A stretch of DNA of 64,000 nt from Sphingomonadaceae bacterium. Lineage in GTDB: Bacteria; Pseudomonadota; Alphaproteobacteria; Sphingomonadales; Sphingomonadaceae. Shown here in pieces: positions 1 through 11,209 of the stretch. The notes under the pieces are model-generated. The model saw only the letters and a list, made by a program, of their open reading frames with translations. It did not search any database and was not told the origin of the DNA. The stretch lies in contig JBGTHQ010000002.1 of the NCBI GenBank assembly GCA_041746135.1, positions 44,823-108,822 on the forward strand, in the 5' to 3' direction. Position numbers and translations under genes: made by a program. Positions within the stretch are counted from its first letter, which is position 1, and each line of letters opens with the position of its first letter.

Positions 1-220
1 GGCTAGGACCGAGGCAAACCTGTCCGATCTGCGTATCCATGACCTGCGGCACAGTGCGGCATCGTTCATGATCAACTCCGGCGTCAATCTGTTTGCCGTA
101 GGGAAGGTGCTGGGCCATGCCGATCATAAATCGACCATGCGATACAGCCACCTTTCCAATGATACGCTATTGGCAGCTGTCGAGGCAGGAGCTGCACATA
201 TGAAGGGAGCCACGCAATGA
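1..220 (+). CDS. int: Tyrosine recombinase (phage-type integrase), C-terminal fragment; the 5' part lies left of the window
   Basis: Frame 2 reads ARTEANLSDLRIHDLRHSAASFMINSGVNLFAVGKVLGHADHKSTMRYSHLSNDTLLAAVEAG... It has the HDLRH and LGH..(x)..Y catalytic-box pattern of tyrosine recombinases. Stop TGA is at 218-220. Confidence 0.85.
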   Translation, partial: ARTEANLSDLRIHDLRHSAASFMINSGVNLFAVGKVLGHADHKSTMRYSHLSNDTLLAAVEAGAAHMKGATQ

Positions 221-465
221 CTTTGGCCGACCTTCACAAAAACCTTGTCGCATCGGACTGTCACAAGAATGATAGGGTGATTGCGCTCATAACTGCTTGT
301 TTGGAATGCGGTATCAATACATCGGATGCAATAGTCGCTGAGCTAACTACGCTCGGGTATAATCAGCGGCATGTTCGTATCATGCTTGCGAAAAACAAGG
401 GGCATTTGACCAGTAACTACCCATGGCAGCGATCCCATGACGGTCAATATCAGCTGAACAGCTAA
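217..465 (+). CDS. Small hypothetical protein (82 aa) translationally coupled to the integrase
   Basis: Its ATG overlaps the integrase stop (ATGA at 217-220). The ORF is followed directly by a strong intrinsic terminator. No recognisable motif. Confidence 0.45.
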   Translation: MTLADLHKNLVASDCHKNDRVIALITACLECGINTSDAIVAELTTLGYNQRHVRIMLAKNKGHLTSNYPWQRSHDGQYQLNS

Positions 466-473
466 CCTACTCC

Positions 474-523
474 CTCCCCGGATTCACATGGCTAATGCCG
501 CGTGGATTCGGGGAGGTTTTTTA
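474..523 (+). terminator. Rho-independent terminator after the int-orf82 unit
   Basis: A 14-bp stem CTCCCCGGATTCAC / GTGGATTCGGGGAG (two G-U pairs) is followed by GTTTTTTATT. Confidence 0.7.
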
Positions 524-730
524 TTCTGTATTGTTTACGGCACCTTCAATTTTCTTTAAGCATGTATAATTTGCAAATTTTTGAAATTGCAATTCGGCAT
601 TGCCATCCGCAATTTGGTATCACAAATCGTAACTACATCAACTCTGTGGGCTTTATCTATAATTCAATATCGTGATCAAGGCAAAAGCGTACTTAAATAG
701 CTGTTTTTAATTTCAGAACCTGTTATTTGA

Positions 731-1444
731 TCAGGATAATTCTCCGGTCTTCTTTTGAAGCCTGGGAAGAGATATTGCATTACGTTCTTTCATTTTTAAA
801 TTAAATGCTTTCTGTAACTCCTGAATAGAGACCTGTTCGTTTGTTATATCAGCCAGAGATGCGCGAATTAGCTTCGTTCTATATTGTGTTATTTTTGAGT
901 TGAACACGATCCGCAGGGTTTGGCGATCATTTCTCCAACTTTCTGCAGGCAATTGCTCATTTATTTTTTTTCTGCTTTTCTCAAGGCATGAGAGCAACTT
1001 TAAGCAATATTCTTCCAGTTCGAACTTAGAAGATGCATAACAAATTCCCACATCCTCGAATTCCAGATTACCCTCATACCCAAAATAACAAACTACTATT
1101 TTTTTTTTGAACATTGAAGATAAATATCCATCGACGACGCTAAAATATCTTTCTTTTTCACAATATTCGACAAGCAGTGCGTCATCTGGAATTACTGAAT
1201 AAACTTCAGGAATCGATATTAGTGTACATTCAGCACTGTTTATAGTTGATTTTGCCTCTCTGTAATTGACCTGAGGTACTGTCATTTCAATTCTGTCCAG
1301 CCATAGCTTAGTTTGCTCTCCCGCTAAGACGAAATGAAAAAGCTTATTTGCAGTAAGCATGGATACCAGCTTTTTTAGCATATCTGCATCTGCGAGACAG
1401 ACGACTATCGAGTCGAAAAACCGGTCAAGCATTCTGGCCTCCAA
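731..1444 (-). CDS. Hypothetical protein (237 aa), last gene of the peptide/M50 unit
   Basis: Long ORF in an AT-rich island. It overlaps the upstream M50-like gene by 20 nt. I recognise no motif. Confidence 0.55.
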   Translation of the reverse strand: MEARMLDRFFDSIVVCLADADMLKKLVSMLTANKLFHFVLAGEQTKLWLDRIEMTVPQVNYREAKSTINSAECTLISIPEVYSVIPDDALLVEYCEKERYFSVVDGYLSSMFKKKIVVCYFGYEGNLEFEDVGICYASSKFELEEYCLKLLSCLEKSRKKINEQLPAESWRNDRQTLRIVFNSKITQYRTKLIRASLADITNEQVSIQELQKAFNLKMKERNAISLPRLQKKTGELS

Positions 1445-2498
1445 AAATCGATCGAATTTTATTAACTGAGCTCGTAGTAATCCACAGCAGAAAAACTATG
1501 ATTATGACAAGTTGTGCAAGTACAAGACTGTTACTGAGCGAGATGTCCCAATCCGCTTCCTTCAGATTATCTGATAGACGCAGAACCGTTATTGTCATTG
1601 TAGAGAATAAATAAACGTAGAATGAAACTAGCGCGACCGCATAAAGGAAGATTATCTTACCTATGCTTCCCTTCCATTCTCTATTTTTAAAACATAAAAC
1701 TACCGATTTGTGAAGATTAGGAATATTAAACAAATCGGAGATTATCCAATAGCCATCAAACTTGAATATAGGGTTCAACGTTCGCAAAAGTAGCCCAACG
1801 GTTACTACATTGAAGAACAGCAAATCCATTCCGAGAAACGCAAAATTTGTAGTATTTAATATTATTGAATAGGCACTTTGTAACCATATTCCTCCCGCGT
1901 CCACAATAACGCGTTGTTTGGGCGACAATGTCCATGTTTCCGTAACATCAGCAAAAAATGCCGGGAAAACAAAATATAACCCCACGCCGATACGGCCAGG
2001 ATTTTTTCCAAATTTTGACAATGCGGCTGTATGCCCGAACTCATGGATTAAAATTCCGATGAATATCAGCAAAATTGATATTGGGAAATTTCCAGGCACT
2101 CCGGCTGACGCGGGTGTTTGGTCAGCCATCTTGACAAAAGCCAGTATCGCGGCAAACGCGATCAGAGCAACGAACCACCACGAAAAACAAAATCTCAAAT
2201 ATTTAGAGATGCCTTGCACTATGCTAGGCGAAAGAAGGTTCAGCTGAAATTTGATATATGAGGGGCGCTGCTTTGCAGCAGCCTCAACCATTTGGGGATA
2301 TGTCTGCTCCAGAAAACGTCGTGCCTCGACTGTTGGAATATCAGGATGAGCAGATCTTAAATGGCTGTAATATTCTTGAGGAGAATTATCGGCTAAATCA
2401 ACCGCAGTAATAAGCGGAATATACCTGTCAGAAAGCCTCATAAAAGCCGTACCAATTTTCACGGTAATAAAGCCTTTATGCGCGGCGACTATCTCCAT
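1425..2498 (-). CDS. Polytopic membrane zinc metalloprotease, M50/site-2-protease-like, with ~100-aa soluble N-terminal domain
   Basis: HEFGH sits in a hydrophobic segment (ILIHEFGHTAALSKFG), with a second S2P-type motif LNPIFKFDGYW (NPxxxxDG) and several hydrophobic helices. A GAGG RBS precedes the ATG. Confidence 0.7.
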   Translation of the reverse strand: MEIVAAHKGFITVKIGTAFMRLSDRYIPLITAVDLADNSPQEYYSHLRSAHPDIPTVEARRFLEQTYPQMVEAAAKQRPSYIKFQLNLLSPSIVQGISKYLRFCFSWWFVALIAFAAILAFVKMADQTPASAGVPGNFPISILLIFIGILIHEFGHTAALSKFGKNPGRIGVGLYFVFPAFFADVTETWTLSPKQRVIVDAGGIWLQSAYSIILNTTNFAFLGMDLLFFNVVTVGLLLRTLNPIFKFDGYWIISDLFNIPNLHKSVVLCFKNREWKGSIGKIIFLYAVALVSFYVYLFSTMTITVLRLSDNLKEADWDISLSNSLVLAQLVIIIVFLLWITTSSVNKIRSIFGGQNA

Positions 2499-2511
2499 TG
2501 TTTACCTCGAT

Positions 2512-2550
2512 AAAAAAGGAACCGAATTTACTGAAAACTTCGGTTCCTTT
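2512..2550 (-). terminator. Intrinsic terminator/attenuator between the small peptide gene and the M50-like gene
   Basis: Perfect 12-bp stem AAAGGAACCGAA / TTCGGTTCCTTT with a 12-nt loop. On the minus-strand transcript it is followed by a U-run (A6 at 2512-2517 on the plus strand), and it abuts the RBS of the next gene. Confidence 0.6.
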
Positions 2551-2570
2551 AATTTAAGAATATACAGTAT

Positions 2571-2690
2571 TTAGTCTGGGGAACATTTAGACGTGCATTC
2601 GCAGTCCAAGGCTTCCGATGCTGTCACCCCATCACCAGCCATTACTTCCATCTCAAGACGCTCATCCAACATTTCAAATTCGTTCTGCAT
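2571..2690 (-). CDS. Unannotated 39-aa Cys-rich precursor-like peptide (MQNEFEMLDERLEMEVMAGDGVTASEALDCECTSKCSPD)
   Basis: Hand translation of the minus strand gives ATG at 2690 and TAA at 2573-2571, with GAGGG 8 nt upstream of the ATG. The N-terminal half is acidic and leader-like. The C-terminal half carries CxCx3C plus Ser/Thr. A terminator hairpin and a protease gene lie immediately downstream. Confidence 0.5.
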   Translation of the reverse strand: MQNEFEMLDERLEMEVMAGDGVTASEALDCECTSKCSPD

Positions 2691-3028
2691 GATTACTGCC
2701 CTCTAAATGAGTATTAACTATGTAGCAGCCCCCCTTGGACTGCATTGCTAGTAAACGCTCTAAATTAAAATATGTCAATACTGATTGCGCGTTCTGTGAA
2801 ATATTCTATAGGTAGAGTGTTCCTTTACAAAACAAAATGATAATATGTTTTCAGCGTCATTGCAATTATTACTACCAGTAATGTTGTATTTCCGCCATTT
2901 TCAAAATTAGAGATCTGCCTTGTTCTTTCCGTAAACGTAAATCGAAATAAGTGTCTGAAATAATAGAATCAGTCGGTTCTAAATGGCATCATTATTAAAC
3001 TTAAAATAACTTTTCATGGAGAATTTGC

Positions 3029-3844
3029 ATGCGACTCGGTAAATATACGTACTTCACTACTGTAACGAGCGTTGCCCTAACTGGGTGCACGGCCTCAATT
3101 TCACCATCACAATTTTTCTATAGGGATCCGCCAGAAAGGGCATCAACGAACACTTCGGATACTGATTTTGAATTTGCCGATTTCGAGTGCGGGAAATTAT
3201 CTTATACAGTATTGAATTCGGGAAATGGCACCGGCACATTAGTATATTATGGGGGTAATCAATTCAGGCTTTCCGAGGATCTATCCAATCTAAAAAAAGT
3301 ACTGCCGTTTTCGGGCATTAGAACAGCAGTTGCTTTCGATTATCCTGGACGAGGATTGACTACGGGCGATATCACCCCTGAATGTTTTGTCTCAGCATCC
3401 ATCGAAGCAGCCCGCATTGCTCAAAAACTACGCATGAAAAGCGAACCGCTTATTGGTCACGGATTCTCATTTGGTGGAATGATGGTTCCTCAGGTGGCAT
3501 CTAAAATTGTTTTTGATAATCTGATACTGGAGTCAACTGCAGCTTCTCCTGAAGACTGGCTTCGCGCTATGGCACCTCCTGGAATCAAAGTTAGGGTTGA
3601 TCCATCCTTAGACAAATTTCGCTCGATCGAAGCGCTTGAAAATTCAGATGCCAAAATTCTGGTCATTACTGGAACTGAAGATGCGAGTGCTGGGCCTAAG
3701 GTTGCACAGAAATTGTCCGACGCATTGGAAGCAAAAAATAAAACTGTACAACTTCTGATTGTTCCAGGGGCGAAGCATGGAGAGGTTTTTTTCAAGCCTA
3801 GTGCGATTGCCAAATTGCGTCAACTTGCAGTTGGCAAACAATAA
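3029..3844 (+). CDS. Alpha/beta-hydrolase-fold lipoprotein (serine hydrolase)
   Basis: Lipobox VALTGC near the N-terminus, nucleophile elbow GHGFSFGG (GxSxG), and distal GTEDAS and GAKHGE consistent with Asp/His of a triad. Confidence 0.75.
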   Translation: MRLGKYTYFTTVTSVALTGCTASISPSQFFYRDPPERASTNTSDTDFEFADFECGKLSYTVLNSGNGTGTLVYYGGNQFRLSEDLSNLKKVLPFSGIRTAVAFDYPGRGLTTGDITPECFVSASIEAARIAQKLRMKSEPLIGHGFSFGGMMVPQVASKIVFDNLILESTAASPEDWLRAMAPPGIKVRVDPSLDKFRSIEALENSDAKILVITGTEDASAGPKVAQKLSDALEAKNKTVQLLIVPGAKHGEVFFKPSAIAKLRQLAVGKQ

Positions 3845-3878
3845 ATATTGAATGGAATTTTGAGATCAGGAGGCGTCT

Positions 3879-4751
3879 ATGCTTTTGAATAAAATATTTG
3901 GAATGCTGGATATGCGCGGCAAGTTAATCCAAACTCAAATTGCGGATGCGTTAAAATTGAATATCTCGATTGAGGAAATTAATAGTTATCTCCTGTTTGA
4001 TACCATAACAAATTATGCTGCACTTCATATGCCCAAAATCTTCGTGAAAAAACTTGCTGCAGCGTCGATGGTTAATAGTACTCAATACCGGGCATCGCTT
4101 AACACAAATAATGGGGGAATAATTTTATCCGTGCCGCATTACGGTCCGTTTCTGTGGGCATGCATCGGGGCGGGAGAAATCATGCGCGAAGGTAGATCTC
4201 TACGCATTTTTTTCCAAGATCCAGAAGTAAATAAGGGCAACAAAATAATCAATGATACCCTTTCTCGCTTTTTTACGGAGGAAGAAATTTGTTTCGATGA
4301 CAGAAAAGGTTTGGCAAAAGCAGCACGGGCGCTTCAGCAAGGCGGATTGTGTATAATCATGCCAGACGCGTTAAGATCACACGAAAATAGTTTCTTAGTT
4401 CCGTTTCTGAACGGCGAATTTGAAGTTCAACCGGGTGTAGCCACACTCACAAGACTTACCAAAAGCAATATAGTTGCCGCTTATGTGACGAAAATAAGAG
4501 GTTGGAAATATAGCATAGAAACGGAAACTATTTTTCCAATCACCTCGGATGAGTTTTCTGCTTTAGAAAAGGATTACCTAGTTATGCAGGATATTCTCGG
4601 TGCGTTTTCCAATTATTTGCATAAGGAACCCATAGGGTGGAGATTCTGGATGACTTATCAGAGCCGCGTTCTATATAAGAATGAAACGCTCGAAAGCATA
4701 ACCGACAGTAATCTTCTGATGGAAATAAGAAAACTCATAAAGATTTGCTAA
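3879..4751 (+). CDS. LpxL/HtrB-like lipid acyltransferase family protein (tentative)
   Basis: The pattern GGLCIIMPDALRS...FLVPFLNGEFEVQPGVATLTRLTKSNIVAAYV resembles the lauroyl/myristoyl acyltransferase family core. However PHYGPFL lacks the acidic residue of the HX4D/E motif. Confidence 0.45.
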   Translation: MLLNKIFGMLDMRGKLIQTQIADALKLNISIEEINSYLLFDTITNYAALHMPKIFVKKLAAASMVNSTQYRASLNTNNGGIILSVPHYGPFLWACIGAGEIMREGRSLRIFFQDPEVNKGNKIINDTLSRFFTEEEICFDDRKGLAKAARALQQGGLCIIMPDALRSHENSFLVPFLNGEFEVQPGVATLTRLTKSNIVAAYVTKIRGWKYSIETETIFPITSDEFSALEKDYLVMQDILGAFSNYLHKEPIGWRFWMTYQSRVLYKNETLESITDSNLLMEIRKLIKIC

Positions 4752-4860
4752 CAGCATTTTATTAACAATAAACAAAGCAGCAAGATAGCATTGAAAATTC
4801 ATGGTAATTATGACAGACTGTGTAATTTGAAAAATTAGGGTACAAACTCATATTAAGGGC

Positions 4861-5874
4861 TTGATTTATTGCTGTGGGATTAATTCAACTTCCCTCGAAA
4901 AAAGCCATCTGCCCGCCAAGCAGACGCTGGACACGCTCGGCATCGCCCTGTCTACCTTCTACCGCTGGTATGATCTGTGCGAGCGCAGTTTCGGCGAAGA
5001 GGCACTGGAAGACCGGCGGCCGGGACCGCGCCGGGCATGGAACCGGATCCCGGAGGAGGTGCAAGACAATATCCTGGACATGGCGCTGGAACGCTGCGAG
5101 CTGAGCCCGCGAGAACTGGCGGTGACGTTCACCGATGAGCAGCGCTACTTTGTATCCGAAGCCAGCGTTTACAGGCTCTTGAAGCGCCATTACCTGATCA
5201 CCAGCCCCAACGTTATTGTAATGAAGGCAGCCAGCGAGTTCAAGGATAATACGACCGCGCCCAACCAGCTATGGCAGACCGACTTTACCTACTTTAAAAT
5301 CATTGGTTGGGGCTGATATAACCTGTCGACGATCCTCGACGATTACTCGCATTACATTATTAGCTGGAAGCTGTGCACGAAGATGCGGGCTGAGGATGTC
5401 ACCGATACGCTGGAGCTAGCGCTGGACGCCTCTGGCTGTGACCAAGCGCATGTGCTGCACAAACCACGCCTGCTATCGGACAATGGCCCCAGTTACATTG
5501 CTGGTGAGCTTGCCGACTATCTGGCCGACAAAAACATGCGCCATGTTCGCGGTGCATTCTTCCATCCGCAAACCCAAGGCAAGATCGAACGCTGGCATCA
5601 GACGCTTAAAAACCGCATCCTGCTGGAAAACTATTACCTGCCCGGCGATCTGGAGGCGCAGGTCGATGCGTTCGTCGAACATTATAATCACCAGCGCTAT
5701 CACGAGAGCTTGAAAAACATCACACCCGCCGATGCCTACTTCGGCAGGGCAGAAGCCACCATCAACAGGCGAGAAAGGATCAAACGTAAACCATCGAGCA
5801 TCGGCGCTTGCAATACCGCAAACAAGCCGCATAATATCAACCAACAGATGGAACCAAATACTCGCCTATTTTAA
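4861..5874 (+). pseudogene. DDE (rve) transposase pseudogene: N-terminally truncated and interrupted by one in-frame TGA (5314-5316)
   Basis: ORFs 4861-5316 and 5383-5874 are in the same frame. Read through the stop, the sequence is ...LWQTDFTYFKIIGWG*YNLSTILDDYSHYIISWKL...SDNGPSY...ERWHQTLK..., typical of an integrase core. Confidence 0.75.
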
Positions 5875-5915
5875 ATGACCGTGTGTCTCAAATTATCTGA
5901 CGACGGACACTCGAG
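4891..5915 (+). mobile_element. Decayed IS remnant (DDE/rve transposase type), 5'-truncated; boundaries approximate
   Basis: Base composition switches abruptly from AT-rich to GC-rich near 4891. It encodes an rve-type transposase. No matching left inverted repeat is visible. Confidence 0.65.
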
Positions 5916-5989
5916 CACCTCGCCGCAAGTATATTCCAGAGTGGAGACTGACCTGAGTGGTATGCTCTGATTGAGTATATTATTTAAGC

Positions 5990-6330
5990 TGTCTAGAATA
6001 AATCACTCTGTAATGGGTCTGCTGCAGGTCGAATTTCAAGATCCCATCCTACCAAAGCATTTTTAATAGGAAAACACCCTCACTAAAATTCTACGCACTT
6101 TGGGTATCGCGTGGGTCGAATGTCAATGATCGGTCGGAAACACTATTAATCTGCTGTATTATATAGCTTATATCTCCCCTTAGACTAGCCTTCGTAATGC
6201 GGGGGTCAGAGGTTCGAATCCTCTAAGCGGCACCATTATTTCACTAGGATAAATCGAGATTGGCTGGCGAAAGGCCGGAAACGTGGATGCGTGTGTGGGT
6301 ATGGCGTGGGTGGGAGTTTGACTTGGTAAA
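5990..6330 (+). repeat. att-like direct repeat, copy A: conserved left arm, 3' half of a tRNA-Thr(CGU)-like gene (6191-6235), conserved right arm (6236-6330)
   Basis: 6191-6235 reads TTCGTAA (anticodon loop, CGT), TGCGG, GGGTC (variable loop), AGAGG-TTCGAAT-CCTCT (T-arm), AAGCGGC-A-CCA. No matching 5' acceptor or D-arm lies upstream. Both arms align by eye with copy C, and the right arm aligns with copy B. Confidence 0.75.
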
Positions 6331-6432
6331 ATATTTCCCTTTGCACTAACTTGTGGCCGCTAATAAGCCCGTAGCGGACTGTCTCTTATGAAGCAGTAGG
6401 GCACCCTGACCGGACATTCGGCTTCGACCCAA

Positions 6433-6786
6433 TTGCGGACAGTCGTCGGATTGTGTAGAATGGCGAGCATGACCGGGAATATTGTCGTTATTTTCACAAT
6501 ACTGTCCTTTCTAGCAGTTCAGGGTGGGATAATCTTTGTTACCGCGTGTTTGCTGAGAAAGGCGATCAGAAGCAGACTAACTCTTTCCAAACCAAGAGCG
6601 ATCCTGTTGTCCTATTGTTTCTGGATAGTATTTATGCTGGCAAGTGTTCTTCTCGACGGTGAATTTGGCTTCTTTGACGGTGGAGGTACAGTGTTATTCG
6701 CATGCCTAACGGGACTGGCTAGCGCGACCATTTACCTCAGAGTATGGCAAAGGCACGAAATTCGATCCACGCGCAACATACTATGA
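6433..6786 (+). CDS. Small integral membrane protein, hypothetical
   Basis: 117-aa ORF with three or four hydrophobic helices. The start is uncertain (TTG, or a downstream ATG). Confidence 0.45.
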   Translation: MRTVVGLCRMASMTGNIVVIFTILSFLAVQGGIIFVTACLLRKAIRSRLTLSKPRAILLSYCFWIVFMLASVLLDGEFGFFDGGGTVLFACLTGLASATIYLRVWQRHEIRSTRNIL

Positions 6787-6932
6787 CTGCTTCCCACACA
6801 TAATCGGACATTCACACATTCCTTGCGTTTCGCCAAAAGCGGATTGGCAGCTAATCCCGCCTTTCAGATAAAACCTGCCTGTAAGCTAACGACCCACTTG
6901 CTGACATATCGATCATTGAGTAGCAACGACAA

Positions 6933-7415
6933 ATGAGCTCGGTTCCCAGCAGTATGATAAAGGTCTTTGAAGCCGCAGGGTGGATAGACGGTCGCCAAAT
7001 TAATTTAGCTTCAACCTTACCTGCAGGTCATCCTGCTCATGCCATTTTGACTGAATTGAGCGGAATCACTCTTACGAACCTCGCACCTAATTTATGCTCC
7101 GTTGTGTTTCGGCACGTGTCTGAAAGTGCGCCGGACTTACACACTTGGGAGGCGGCATTGGGTGCGGATATGGTCGGTATCGCCGAAGTGGATGATGGCC
7201 ATGCCACACTATATTTGAGCAGCCGTGGACACGTTATCGGGTGCAGCAACATCCACGATGCTTACTTTTTGGTCGGCCGGACTATTGGCGAGGCTATTGG
7301 AAGCGGTAGGCGCGCTAAGCCGATGCTGCTTCCTGGCGAGAGTGAAGTTATGCTTTATGGTAGTACCTTTTGTCAGGGCGACGTAGAGGTGATTGGACCG
7401 GACGAACTTACTTAA
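6933..7415 (+). CDS. SUKH-3-like immunity-type protein (tentative)
   Basis: The N-terminal pattern FEAAGWIDGRQI....AILTELSGITL resembles the SUKH-3 family signature as I remember it (L..AGW..GR ... L.E.GG.). Confidence 0.5.
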   Translation: MSSVPSSMIKVFEAAGWIDGRQINLASTLPAGHPAHAILTELSGITLTNLAPNLCSVVFRHVSESAPDLHTWEAALGADMVGIAEVDDGHATLYLSSRGHVIGCSNIHDAYFLVGRTIGEAIGSGRRAKPMLLPGESEVMLYGSTFCQGDVEVIGPDELT

Positions 7416-7568
7416 GCTCATATACAATTCCGATGTCCACGGACCAGCAGCTTTCACCAAATATCGTAAGTGCGCTGATCTGACGCTCATTGCCAAGAGC
7501 GGCCATTCAGCAGTGCCACGCACACGGTGGTCAGTCGCGTAAAATCGGGTATCTTATATGAAGTTCAG

Positions 7569-7802
7569 CTATTCCGATCGCGCTTCCAGCAACATTGATA
7601 GGTCAACACCAAGCGCAACTGCCAATCTACCCAACGCAGCCACGGATGGATTACGTAACCCGCGCTCAACCTCACTAACATAACCACGTTCCATGCTGGC
7701 CTTCACAGCCAATTGCTCTTGGGTCATGCCCTTTTGCAATCTGTAATGCCGAACATTCTTACCAAATAGACTGACCAAATTCATGATCTGATTTGGACGC
7801 AT
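7569..7802 (-). CDS. XRE-family helix-turn-helix transcriptional regulator (77 aa)
   Basis: LRLQKGMTQEQLAVKASMERGYVSEVERGLRNPSVAALGRLAVALGV is a canonical HTH_3 pattern. Confidence 0.85.
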   Translation of the reverse strand: MRPNQIMNLVSLFGKNVRHYRLQKGMTQEQLAVKASMERGYVSEVERGLRNPSVAALGRLAVALGVDLSMLLEARSE

Positions 7803-7894
7803 TCATGCGCTCAGGTCTGTGCGCCAAACGTTACTTTTTACTAGCATTGCCTCAAAACGGCGATAAACATCAACTCAACTGAAAGGAAAATATA

Positions 7895-8296
7895 ATGCTG
7901 AATGATGAAAGCCTCAAAAATATCGAGAGGCTACACGAAATGAAAAACAGCGGAATTTTGTCAGAGGCAGAGTTTGAAGAAGCCAAGCAAAAGCTTTTGA
8001 GCGGAGGGAATCCGCTCATTTCTTTCAAGCACGGCAGTCGATCGGCAAGCATGGTTCGAATCGTCGACGAGAGGCCCGACCTGCTGTTCAAAACCATTCT
8101 GCAAAAAGGAATGCGGTTCGAAGCCTTGCCAGATGAAGAAACTATTCCGCCCGATGAAGACACGGCTGAATTCAAGGTTGCCTATGAACGTGCGCAGCTG
8201 ACCAATGAAGCCTTTCTCGCAGAGACTGAAACATTAAGCGATGACGAAGCAGAGCCCAGCGCTGGGACACTGCAGAACAAACCCTGCGCGGTGTAG
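7895..8296 (+). CDS. SHOCT-domain protein
   Basis: The N-terminal LHEMKNSGILSEAEFEEAKQKLL matches the SHOCT short domain. The rest is acidic and low-complexity. Confidence 0.65.
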   Translation: MLNDESLKNIERLHEMKNSGILSEAEFEEAKQKLLSGGNPLISFKHGSRSASMVRIVDERPDLLFKTILQKGMRFEALPDEETIPPDEDTAEFKVAYERAQLTNEAFLAETETLSDDEAEPSAGTLQNKPCAV

Positions 8297-9438: not shown

Positions 9439-10173
9439 TTGAGCGCAATCGTAAATACACCTCTCGCACGCAAACTTGGTGCTTTCGTCGCGCTGTCGGA
9501 GAGCGAGCTTGGACTAATAGAGCGGCTGCACCAACGCCGCAGGAAATTCGTCGCTGGGCGTGATCTGGTTTATCAGGGTCAGACCGACGGGGCCGCTTAT
9601 ATACTGGCGTCTGGCTGGGCAGCGTCATACAAAATCCTACCAGACGGATCACGGCAGATTGTAGACTTTCAGATTCCCGGCGATTTTCTGGGGCTGCGCA
9701 GCGTGCTGCTACACACTTCTGACCATTCCATCGAGCCGGTGACCGACATCGAAGTATCAGAAATTTTGGCGGCAGATCTTTTGAATGCGTTCTCGCAAAA
9801 CCTGCGATTGGCAACGGCCGTACTTTGGGCGGCATCGCGCGACGAGGCCATGGTGGTTGAGCATCTGGTCGACATCGGACGGCGTAGTGCACTTGAACGC
9901 ATAGCCCATTTCCTGCTTGAATTAGGGGCAAGGCTTAAACTGGTCGGTCTGGGCAACCAGGCAGGCTATGCTTGTCCATTAACGCAATATCATCTCGCCG
10001 ATGCGTCCGGATTGAGCGCGGTCCACGTCAACCGGGTGCTTCGGCAATTGCGCGAGGACGGGTTAGTTACGTTTCGTGACGGGTTTGTGGGCTTCGACAA
10101 TTATGAGAGTTTGGCCGAAATGGTTGAATTCGACCCGAGTTATCTGGAGCAGACCGGGCCTCTACTGAAGTAA
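9439..10173 (+). CDS. Crp/Fnr-family transcriptional regulator
   Basis: A cNMP-binding-like N-terminal barrel, plus the C-terminal HTH ERIAHFLLELGARL...PLTQYHLADASGLSAVHVNRVLRQLREDGLV. Confidence 0.85.
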   Translation: MSAIVNTPLARKLGAFVALSESELGLIERLHQRRRKFVAGRDLVYQGQTDGAAYILASGWAASYKILPDGSRQIVDFQIPGDFLGLRSVLLHTSDHSIEPVTDIEVSEILAADLLNAFSQNLRLATAVLWAASRDEAMVVEHLVDIGRRSALERIAHFLLELGARLKLVGLGNQAGYACPLTQYHLADASGLSAVHVNRVLRQLREDGLVTFRDGFVGFDNYESLAEMVEFDPSYLEQTGPLLK

Positions 10174-10212
10174 CCAATGTGAAGCAGATTATGGAACTAA
10201 TGGCTTGAAAAG

Positions 10213-10482
10213 TCACATGCCAGGCATTTCGTCATAGAAATGAATCTGCATCCGCATCGGACCGAGCGGTTCGACGAAATGGATTTGCTCCGGCAGAATG
10301 ACGCCAGTGTCGCCCGGCACCAGAATTTTGTCCAGGCTTGGATCAAGGAAGTGCAAATGCAGTCTGCCTTCGATGACACGGATCAAGCCCCAAGTGCCCG
10401 CCTTGGTACAATGCTCTTTTCGCAGGGCAGCAGGGAGTGTAGCTTCGTCAAATTCTGGTGTGGAACGATAAGGTTCGGCCAT
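10213..10482 (-). CDS. DUF1971 (YeaR/TehB C-terminal-like) protein
   Basis: TPEFDEATLPAALRKEHCTKAGTWGLIRVIEGRLHLHF...FHFVEP-type pattern as remembered for YeaR-like proteins. Confidence 0.65.
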   Translation of the reverse strand: MAEPYRSTPEFDEATLPAALRKEHCTKAGTWGLIRVIEGRLHLHFLDPSLDKILVPGDTGVILPEQIHFVEPLGPMRMQIHFYDEMPGM

Positions 10483-10483
10483 A

Positions 10484-11209
10484 CTATGCTTTCAATCGTA
10501 TATCGTCGGCGTGCTCGGGATACGGTGCCGTACTCCGCAGGCCAACAGGCAGGCCAGCGAGCTTGTCCGAAAAGCCGTGGTTCACATCGCGGTGATGGGC
10601 CTCGTCGGCACGCACAACCAGCACTACATCCCGCAAGGTCGCATCTGCAGGGAGCTTCCAGTAATGGCGTGCAATCTCCGGTGCCGGGACGTTGGGTGAC
10701 CGGCCTTCGTCGATTTCCTTGAGATAGAGAGTGTAGCTGATCACCGCCTCTTCCTCAAAATATCCGACGACGCGGTGTGCGGTGCGCGATGATATGAGGT
10801 AAAGAAAGAAGAACGCAATATAGAATACCCATTGGACAGAAAGAATCACCAACCGCTCGAACATATTGGGCTGGGCCACTTTAATGAACGTCATAAGGTG
10901 CATCCGCTCGTTCTCGGCTTCTTCCATCAAGGTTCGAATCCAGCCATCGTCGTCAATCATTTTGCGGAGGCATTTCAGGTGGGTGAGCGTGGCACCGACC
11001 ATACCGGGAACGGCCGCCACGGTTTCCAGCACAATCGCGCGATGGCCATAGCGTTTGGCAAAGAAGGTATCGGCGCAAAAGCGCAATAGCTTCGTAAAAC
11101 CTAGAGCGAAACGGTCTGAAAAGCCGTGCGGTTCGTGATGTATAACGGGTTCGGCGTCTCTTTCTTCTTGCAGTGCGCATTCGTCGGGTTGCAGAACTTT
11201 GTTGACCAT
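10484..11209 (-). CDS. aox: Alternative oxidase (di-iron ubiquinol oxidase)
   Basis: The AOX iron-binding motifs are present: [29 protein letters not shown] and [11 protein letters not shown]. Confidence 0.9.

Follow-up and report, generated by a model that had tools for sequence, protein, structure and literature searches.

A candidate ribosomal-peptide gene cluster on a mobile island combines a site-2-type protease with proteins of the LpxL/LpxM acyltransferase type

RESULTS

A five-gene cluster of a widespread proteobacterial family

Analysis of a 64,000-nucleotide (nt) stretch of contig JBGTHQ010000002.1 from a Sphingomonadaceae bacterium (assembly GCA_041746135.1), the whole of which is referred to here as the window, revealed at positions 731 to 4751 a gene set that is best read as one five-gene cluster for a peptide made by ribosomes and modified after its translation (a RiPP). 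The five genes encode a small Cys-containing precursor peptide, a site-2-type intramembrane protease (S2P) fused to a putative RiPP recognition element (RRE), a protein named U here, an α/β-hydrolase, and an acyltransferase of the LpxL/LpxM type, a member of the lysophospholipid acyltransferase (LPLAT) family. In the model that we regard as probable, the Cys core of the peptide would be fatty acylated under the guidance of its leader, and the leader would then be removed within the membrane to give a lipidated peptide; the acylation is a step that we infer. The cluster family is apparently undescribed and would represent a RiPP cluster on the chassis of a daptide-type RRE-S2P protease, with a tailoring-enzyme fold for which no RiPP precedent was found. 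A full-text search of open-access papers and preprints yielded no published link between an LPLAT/LpxL-type enzyme and a RiPP, and no model for the precursor or for U was found in Pfam or NCBIfam (June 2026), the two collections of family models that were searched.

The window was compared with 80 genome loci encoding protease homologues and with several metagenome contigs. Clustering of all open reading frames (ORFs) of the fetched loci against each other revealed two architectures around the protease family. What the comparison shows directly is homology, synteny, and a leader, core, and catalytic motifs that are conserved. The first, for which we coined the name type A, comprises a precursor, an RRE-S2P protease, U, an LPLAT protein, and optionally an α/β-hydrolase. 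Type A accounts for 34 of the 80 genome loci and also occurs in three metagenome loci and in the window together with its two copies in Logan assemblies; among its hosts are Xanthomonadales, Oxalobacteraceae, Colwellia, Shewanella, and Halieaceae. Its genes stand in the order precursor or precursors, protease, U, the optional α/β-hydrolase, and the LpxL/LpxM-type acyltransferase (PF03279). The U proteins of these loci have 250 to 320 amino acids, lack a Pfam match, and mostly overlap the protease stop; DUF2987, a CPBP protease, and a small PDZ-like protein (recognized by eye) are additional members in some loci. The window holds every type A part, including a leader of the L-E-x-R-[LF]-E-M-E type and at least one Cys in the core. 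Its sole difference is that the hydrolase and acyltransferase genes are divergent and not located downstream of U. A sequence-only reading of this DNA had described 731-2760 as an orphan module without tailoring enzymes. Every sequence feature it reported was found where it had been placed, but the divergent genes at 3029-3844 and 3879-4751 proved by synteny and blastp to be conserved partners of that module.

The second architecture, type B, occurs in Chloroflexota, Bacteroidota, Myxococcota, and other groups (L019, L020, L025, L043, L047, L052, L076, L078, L081, and L083, in each case ~1-10 kb around the protease). It has the same leader (ELExRLE[ML] in these loci) and a homologous RRE-S2P protease, with up to five Cys-rich precursors per locus (L076). 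The tailoring genes of type B encode a radical-SAM/SPASM maturase and a squalene-cyclase/prenyltransferase-like toroid protein, accompanied by FtsX-type ABC genes. Because the same protease-leader pair serves radical-SAM/SPASM clusters in other phyla, the pair in the window is marked as a putative RiPP leader-removal module.

The precursor peptide

The ORF at 2571-2690 on the minus strand (2690->2571) translates to the 39-amino-acid peptide MQNEFEMLDERLEMEVMAGDGVTASEALDCECTSKCSPD, and the sequence GAGGG is positioned 8 nt 5' of its ATG. The leader covers approximately residues 1 to 16 (..FEMLDERLEMEV), and the core ends in DCECTSKCSPD. Gene callers predicted this 39-codon ORF in two Logan assemblies, and no Pfam or NCBIfam model matched the peptide. 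Small ORFs with the same leader were present upstream of the protease throughout the fetched loci. The closest protease homologue, P0004 (38% identity), has MNNNELNLETLEARLEMEIVAPVTNGGPGGPIGTTPICVCLN upstream, which has L-E-x-R-L-E-M-E and a CxC near the C terminus in common with the window peptide.

Alignment of 40 precursors from 33 other proteobacterial loci, anchored on the leader Arg (position 0), gave the leader consensus Φ-x-Φ-E-x-L-E-[AS]-R-[FL]-E-M-E-[AVS], in which all 40 sequences have L(-3), R(0), and E(+2). The corresponding motif in the window is L-D-E-R-L-E-M-E. In each of the 40 precursors, EME is followed by a stretch of 14 to 38 residues with one Cys or more, and CxC is present in 31 of the cores; Cys is nearly missing from the leaders. 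The last Cys is mostly located 2 to 5 residues from the C terminus (full range, 1 to 10). Cores near-identical to that of the window were found in Dokdonella (L026, ..GSCECTSTCSPE), in Wenzhouxiangella (L038, ..GCECTSTCRPE), and in a metagenome-assembled genome of Oxalobacteraceae (L014, ..KCSCTSTCSPS), and many loci hold two or three paralogous precursor copies. On the basis of these alignments, the 39-codon ORF is assigned as a genuine precursor peptide gene; a chance ORF is excluded because leader and core are conserved at the amino acid level in dozens of homologous loci.

The sequence-only reading had interpreted the small ORF as a leader/core precursor, and the 40 homologous precursors bear this out through both their leaders and their Cys cores. 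Two of the refuting conditions that it had named were checked and did not apply: small Cys-containing ORFs accompany the protease homologues, and the amino acid sequence of the small ORF is conserved. Its further comparison of ..MAG-DG to a double-glycine leader did not hold. This stretch lies in the least conserved part of the precursor alignment, where the residues after EME vary, and the conserved recognition motif is instead L-[ED]-x-R-[LF]-E-M-E. A double-glycine leader was rejected since a C39 peptidase is absent and G-D-G is not conserved in the 40 relatives.

In Xanthomonadales-type relatives, a gene of the TraB/PrgY/GumN family is positioned immediately upstream of the precursors (L006, 4022-5209; L007, 3720-4811; L085, 427-1554; L086, 2131-3228). 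The precursors of these four loci occur in pairs, with the core types ..TTPVCICHF and ..LPIECWCxx. No TraB homologue was found in the window.

The RRE-fused intramembrane protease

The gene at 1425-2498 on the minus strand encodes a predicted RRE-fused, site-2-type intramembrane HExxH metalloprotease of 357 amino acids. It carries HEFGH at residues 152-156 (nt 2045-2031) and NPIFKFDG at residues 242-249 (nt 1775-1752). Neither motif varies across an alignment of 21 sequences, and both fall within helices predicted by an AlphaFold2 (AF2) model; this is the M50 pattern of HExxH followed by (N)xxPxxxxDG in a later helix. The best NCBIfam match was daptide_HExxH (E 3e-30, 105.6 bits) and the second was the YydH/LiaK epipeptide protease NF058609 (E 8e-19, 68.3 bits), both under the respective curated equivalog cutoffs of 300 and 225 bits. 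The protease thus appears to be related to the daptide and YydH/LiaK families without being a member of either. PF02163 was not matched at E <= 0.1 by the window protease, although many of its homologues carry this domain, and its identity to any other member of the family is at most 41%.

In the AF2 model (pLDDT, a confidence measure, of 78.8), residues 2-76 form a βββ-ααα domain at the N terminus. A helical membrane core comes next, in which the HExxH helix is followed by a β-hairpin. The N-terminal elements are strands β2-7, β10-15, and β18-23 and helices 24-38, 40-50, and 56-76. The top Foldseek match of the model was SpoIVFB (8vjm), which is marginal (prob 0.99 but E 0.023, TM 0.29-0.35). 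Since the search is global, Foldseek with the whole protease model gave no clean RRE match. A profile of the N-terminal domain of the family had PqqD (5sxy) as its best, weak match in the PDB (E 0.077), and the Pfam PqqD model matched 5 of 15 protease relatives (best E 1e-4) and not the window sequence itself. The soluble N-terminal domain of ~100 amino acids, with its putative PqqD-like part at residues ~1-80 (nt 2498-2259), looks like a leader-binding RRE. The motifs, the NCBIfam HExxH matches, and the AF2 model agree with the sequence-only reading, which had described a membrane metalloprotease of the M50/S2P type that bears a soluble N-terminal domain. On the contig of the closest relative (L003, 8891-9069), the protease is seemingly truncated at 296 amino acids, with a different sequence thereafter; the related locus L013 has a full protease-U-acyltransferase cluster.

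The acyltransferase and the α/β-hydrolase

The gene at 3879-4751 on the plus strand encodes a 290-amino-acid LpxL/LpxM-type protein in which the catalytic His87 (PHYG) and Asp163 (MPD) are kept. Direct Pfam and NCBIfam matches of the window protein were weak; PF03279 gave 20.7 bits, just under its gathering score of 22.3 bits. A cluster homologue matched PF03279 with E 3e-18, and blastp connected the window protein to 35 cluster acyltransferases with E values down to 2e-20. P86-H87-Y88-G89 and D163 are invariant in the family, whose profile aligned over its full length to LpxM (5KNK, E 7e-11) and also to PatA (E 7e-6). The catalytic His, the PD block, and the homology at the family level place the protein, as a predicted enzyme, in the LPLAT family.

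Five relatives carry genes that could supply an acyl donor. A FabF/B-like ketosynthase gene follows the acyltransferase gene on the same strand in L015 (Colwellia) and in L023, L037, and L039 (Steroidobacteraceae). An acyl carrier protein (ACP) gene with a DSL motif separates the two in L015, L023, and L037; none was identified in L039. In L085, ketosynthase and ACP genes are adjacent in convergent orientation. The regions concerned are L015 3209-4730, L037 ~5125-6614, L023 ~9598-11087, L039 9844-11103, and L085 5782-7292. Their position beside the acyltransferase suggests a pathway-specific acyl donor. In seven Oxalobacteraceae loci (L005, L012, L021, L022, L024, L027, and L029), DUF2987 and a CPBP/Rce1-like intramembrane protease follow the acyltransferase; these genes may serve immunity or further processing.

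The α/β-hydrolase gene (3029-3844, plus strand) encodes an S9/DLH-like protein of 271 amino acids with a match to Pfam Peptidase_S9 (E 7e-9). In all 9 genome loci with such a gene, the encoded α/β-hydrolase was a blastp match of the window protein (E 4e-14 to 7e-26). A lipobox was read from the sequence at the end of a lipoprotein signal (..VALTGC) that predicts export, and because of this signal the hydrolase should act in the envelope.

The U protein as a divergent relative of the acyltransferase

The U gene lies at 731-1432 on the minus strand and overlaps the end of the protease gene. Gene callers and the ribosome-binding site favor the ATG at 1432 (233 amino acids, 8-nt overlap ATGCTTGA) over the TTG at 1444 (237 amino acids, 20-nt overlap). 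The overlap is consistent with translational coupling of U to the protease. The 237-amino-acid protein had no match in Pfam or NCBIfam and, in a word-indexed search, no relative besides itself. An exhaustive phmmer search of 1.84 billion (1.84e9) representatives found one U relative only, P0088 (29% identity, E 1.7e-11), which lies on a short contig, again immediately behind a protease homologue. Five repeated stretches of the 5117-amino-acid protein P0089 matched the window U at residues 34-63 (E 3e-4), a match that is probably spurious or due to a short repeat motif.

Alignment of profiles by hhalign connected the window U and P0088 to the U family as defined by gene position (93.6% probability, E 2e-7), and the U family with the window included to the cluster acyltransferases (94.7% probability, E 5.6e-8, 178 columns). 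In the latter alignment, the PHYG block falls into a gap of U, where P-S-T or P-F-x stands instead, and the SFP[DE] and FS..E.LL blocks are retained. As judged from these alignments, U is a fast-evolving, divergent LPLAT-fold paralogue of the cluster acyltransferase that has lost the catalytic His. The AF2 model of U from a 9-sequence alignment was unusable (pLDDT 49), and the U-family profile had no meaningful match among the PDB sequences. Of the sequence-only description of the protein behind the protease, the overlap stands, with the start now favored at 1432; its statement that the protein has no recognizable motif is superseded by the LPLAT-like profile alignment.

The hairpin and the divergent intergenic region

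A terminator- or attenuator-like hairpin (2511-2550, minus strand) separates the precursor gene from the protease gene. It has a perfect 12-bp stem (5' arm 2550-2539, 3' arm 2526-2515), a 12-nt loop, and a U tract, UUUUUUA, into which the stem runs. It ends 12 nt before the protease ATG (2498), with GAGG as the ribosome-binding site in between. For the 81-nt stretch 2575-2495, in which it lies, the folding energy is -18.9 kcal/mol (z = -3.0 versus dinucleotide shuffles); a simple terminator scan did not report it solely because its loop exceeds 8 nt. When 30 loci including the window were tested against shuffles, 15 had a significant hairpin within 70 nt of the precursor stop, compared to ~1.5 expected by chance. 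The hairpin between precursor and enzyme genes noted in the sequence-only reading is therefore found in the same place in half of the loci tested. The Xanthomonadales group has too short a spacer between precursor and protease to accommodate a hairpin; there, the 5' coding region of the protease gene contains a GC-rich palindrome that is conserved (GGGCGATGT..ACATCGCCC), 60 to 95 nt after the last precursor stop (L003 ~8040-8065; also L006, L059, L085, and L086).

The AT-rich intergenic region between the two divergent gene groups (2691-3028) contains promoter-like hexamers on both strands. The sites at 2865-2837 and 2830-2803 (minus strand) and at 2942-2969 (plus strand) are consensus matches only and are no commoner than in shuffles. 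The region probably controls both transcription units.

Surroundings of the cluster

The module has a G+C content of 41%, compared to 50-58% over most of the window, and lies beside the 3' end of a tyrosine integrase gene (1-220, plus strand), in agreement with the low-GC unit next to an integrase that the sequence-only reading had noted. The integrase marks the boundary of the island and lies outside the biosynthetic unit. The full gene is seen in the Logan assembly L002, where it encodes 385 amino acids with Arm-DNA-bind_3 and Phage_integrase domains. On the other flank, an IS3-family element with two ORFs (4861-5874, plus strand) directly follows the acyltransferase gene and is regarded as context only. 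It shares ~82% identity over ~100 nt with IS3 copies from alphaproteobacterial plasmids, and its insertion may have displaced downstream cluster genes. No tRNA genes were found in the window, L001, or L002, and PADLOC gave no defense-system match.

Three small genes lie nearby. An 82-amino-acid ORF (217-465) that overlaps the integrase stop by 4 nt had no family match and is present at the same position in the Logan copies L001 and L002. Positions 6933-7415, in the lower-GC region of the cluster, encode a SUKH-3 immunity-like protein (Pfam E 2.5e-6), and a small ORF resembling an XRE-type helix-turn-helix regulator (by eye) lies beside it in the same region (7569-7802).

DISCUSSION

Proposed pathway and rival explanations

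What chemistry the cluster carries out, in what order its steps follow, and which biological role it serves are proposals of ours, and the following pathway is put forward conditionally. Two divergent units would be transcribed from 2691-3028, one with precursor, hairpin, protease, and U (minus strand) and one with α/β-hydrolase and acyltransferase (plus strand). The hairpin and U tract would give a short, abundant precursor transcript with some read-through and hence a high ratio of precursor to enzyme. By analogy with daptide MpaP/MpaB, the leader motif L-D-E-R-L-E-M-E would bind the PqqD-like domain of the protease, presumably as a β-strand with alternating L/F-M-A/V and E-E faces. The acyltransferase, with the His-less U as a noncatalytic partner, would take a fatty acyl group from acyl-ACP and attach it to the core, most probably at the universally conserved Cys or close to it. 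Lipidation would draw the short, hydrophilic core to the membrane, where the HExxH intramembrane protease would remove the leader shortly after EME[AV]. The lipoprotein α/β-hydrolase may then trim or deacylate the product or acyl group in the envelope. The product would be a small lipidated Cys peptide with a function as an antimicrobial or a signal; the CPBP/Abi-type genes of some relatives hint at a bacteriocin, and the TraB/PrgY-type genes of others hint at a pheromone.

The rival that deserves most attention, which we nevertheless consider unlikely, is that the peptide is processed only, that is, cleaved and perhaps oxidized or metal-loaded at CxC, while the acyltransferase, U, and the hydrolase remodel envelope lipids (lipid A, lysophospholipids) for immunity or adaptation. 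All characterized LPLAT/LpxL-family enzymes act on lipids, and the profile matches were to LpxM and PatA. The hydrolase is a predicted lipoprotein and hence belongs to the envelope, some relatives encode CPBP/Abi-type membrane proteins, which are frequent bacteriocin immunity factors, and an exporter or classical RiPP tailoring enzyme is absent. These points are countered by the apparent translational coupling of U to the RRE-protease in nearly all type A loci and by the loss of the catalytic His, which is typical of a substrate-presenting partner. The dedicated ACP and ketosynthase genes of five loci suit the making of a specific acyl group better than lipid remodeling at large, and short hydrophilic cores would be poor substrates of an intramembrane protease unless they are anchored. 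Other chemistry of the LPLAT pair appears less probable still. Transient O- or S-acylation could activate Ser/Thr for elimination, or the C terminus, so that a thioether or thiolactone ring forms with Cys. Many cores do join CxC with Thr/Ser (CTCT, CECTSTCSP), and the usual position of the last Cys close to the C terminus recalls AgrD-type thiolactones. Several cores, however, lack Ser/Thr near Cys (PIECWCDNK, FYCRCGWEQ), the distance from Cys to the C terminus varies over 1 to 10 residues, such chemistry has no precedent, and the ACP and ketosynthase genes of the relatives indicate a real fatty acyl group. Lanthionine was rejected as the modification that defines the class, on the ground that several cores are without Ser/Thr, and an AgrD-like thiolactone of fixed size was rejected on the ground of the variable distance.

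The two remaining explanations concern the module itself. That 731-2760 is an orphan two- or three-gene unit of peptide, protease, and unknown protein with a double-glycine-type leader and no tailoring enzymes has very little probability. No tailoring motif can be recognized within 731-2760 and ..MAG-DG superficially resembles a GG site, but synteny shows hydrolase and acyltransferase as conserved members, the 237-amino-acid protein is acyltransferase-like, and neither a C39 peptidase nor a conserved G-D-G was found. Least probable of all, to a degree that we regard as almost negligible, is that the 39 codons are a chance ORF, or else regulate the protease operon as a nonfunctional upstream ORF or an attenuation leader. 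The shortness of the ORF and the terminator-like hairpin behind it would fit such a role; the conservation of leader and Cys core at the amino acid level across bacterial classes and the two or three paralogous copies in many loci do not.

Several points weigh against acylation and leader removal in the window copy or in the family. We know of no LPLAT-family enzyme that acylates a peptide; the known substrates are lipid A precursors, phosphatidylinositol mannosides, and lysophospholipids. An ACP or ketosynthase was not found in the window, and therefore its enzyme would need housekeeping acyl-ACP. No exporter is conserved across type A clusters. All named families have curated cutoffs far above the scores of the window protease and acyltransferase, and the RRE call in the window depends on model topology and on weak profile matches of relatives (the E 0.077 match to PqqD). 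The window copy is the most divergent member found, with a rearranged gene order and a location on a mobile island, and its leader is the shortest of the family and is without the aromatic residue at position -8. Lying between an integrase and an IS element, this copy could be in decay, though all five ORFs are intact. Judged by its divergence and its location, activity of the window copy is not to be assumed.

With these points taken into account, leader-guided acylation followed by intramembrane cleavage remains the model that we favor. Its most far-reaching form is put forward as a tentative proposal: type A may constitute a new class of ribosomal lipopeptides in which an LpxL/LpxM-fold enzyme, guided by its dead paralogue and by the recognition domain of the protease, acylates a Cys core and thereby delivers a soluble peptide to an S2P. 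If this is true, lipid A late acyltransferases have been recruited for ribosomal peptides, which would give that enzyme family its first peptide substrate and would add a fold to RiPP lipidation beside the GNATs and the Lgt/Lnt lipoprotein pathway. The model would also answer how an intramembrane protease obtains a short hydrophilic substrate and would represent a new substrate-entry logic for S2P proteases. The leader motif, the RRE-S2P protease, and the active/inactive acyltransferase pair together would offer a handle for mining soil and marine Proteobacteria for a family of small Cys peptides. With ~4 kb and five genes on a mobile island, the window copy is compact and suited to heterologous expression.

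Comparison with known systems

The sequence-only reading had found no named RiPP class to fit, and the cluster indeed falls outside the daptides, epipeptides, lanthipeptides, double-glycine peptides, and GNAT-type lipo-RiPPs. Daptide clusters were found via an RRE fused N-terminally to an intramembrane site-2 protease, and the daptide leader ELExMEAP ends at the cleavage site (PMC10036551). The daptides (mpa; MpaA, MpaP; Ren et al. 2023, PMC10036551) resemble the window cluster in the apparent architecture of a PqqD-like RRE with an HExxH intramembrane protease, in an acidic/hydrophobic leader with an ELE..ME motif near the cleavage site, and in the common occurrence of several precursor genes per cluster. 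In contrast to daptides, the window protease stays under the daptide cutoff (105.6 versus 300 bits). An MpaB/C oxidoreductase pair, PLP aminotransferase, or methyltransferase is not encoded within or beside window 1-8000, and an ABC transporter is lacking. The C-terminal Thr that is invariant in daptides is replaced by Asp in the window peptide (..CSPD), the core is short, hydrophilic, and Cys containing and not a hydrophobic helix, and the hosts are Proteobacteria and not Actinomycetota or Bacillota. Epipeptides (YydF/YydG/YydH; LiaK, NF058609) likewise have a related HExxH membrane protease (E 8e-19) and a small precursor that it processes. They differ in that the window protease reaches 68.3 of the 225 bits, that radical-SAM YydG and the YydIJ ABC transporter are missing from the window cluster, and that leader and core are unrelated.

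Among the cluster proteins, searches of Pfam and NCBIfam gave no match to LanB/LanC, LanM, LanKC/LanL, or LxmK/X/Y of lanthipeptides (classes I-V), nor to a GNAT fold. Double-glycine bacteriocins are set apart by the C39/ABC gene that the cluster lacks and by the variable residues after EME in the 40 homologues. The GNAT-acylated RiPPs (selidamides, lipolanthines, goadvionins, lipoavitides, and aphotorhaptins; PMC8784127, PMC13647313, bioRxiv 10.1101/2023.10.25.564083) are fatty-acylated ribosomal peptides, as is proposed here. Goadvionin and lipoavitide clusters include parts of fatty acid or polyketide synthases, and some type A relatives carry ACP and ketosynthase likewise. The clusters differ in the LpxL/LpxM (PF03279) fold with its His-less paralogue and in the lack of lanthionine, avionin, or arginase machinery, and the acylation is deduced here. 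All fatty-acylated RiPPs listed as of October 2026 are GNAT modified (PMC13647313). DAG-RiPPs, which use the lipoprotein pathway (PMC13056109), and TMcin (PMC13252029) were rejected as different systems.

LpxL, LpxM, and PatA (PDB 5KNK, 5F2T) are similar to the cluster acyltransferases in their full-length family alignment to LpxM (E 7e-11) and in the kept PH(Y/F)G His and PD block. They differ in their lipid A or phosphatidylinositol mannoside pathways; the cluster proteins score far under their equivalog cutoffs and stand in a peptide/protease cluster as an active/inactive duplicate pair. In the enterococcal pheromone system (Eep; PrgY/TraB self-protection), a site-2-type protease likewise frees a short peptide, and TraB/PrgY/GumN genes are found near the precursors in some Xanthomonadales relatives. 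Eep, however, cuts lipoprotein signal peptides and is without an RRE, and that system has neither dedicated precursor genes nor acyltransferases. The type B clusters differ in their radical-SAM/SPASM and squalene-cyclase/prenyltransferase-like tailoring, in FtsX-type ABC export, and in the lack of an acyltransferase pair, and their radical-SAM protein is weakly similar to CefB/PapB-type maturases. Their likeness to the window cluster lies in the ELExRLE[ML] leader, the homologous RRE-S2P protease, and the Cys-rich cores.

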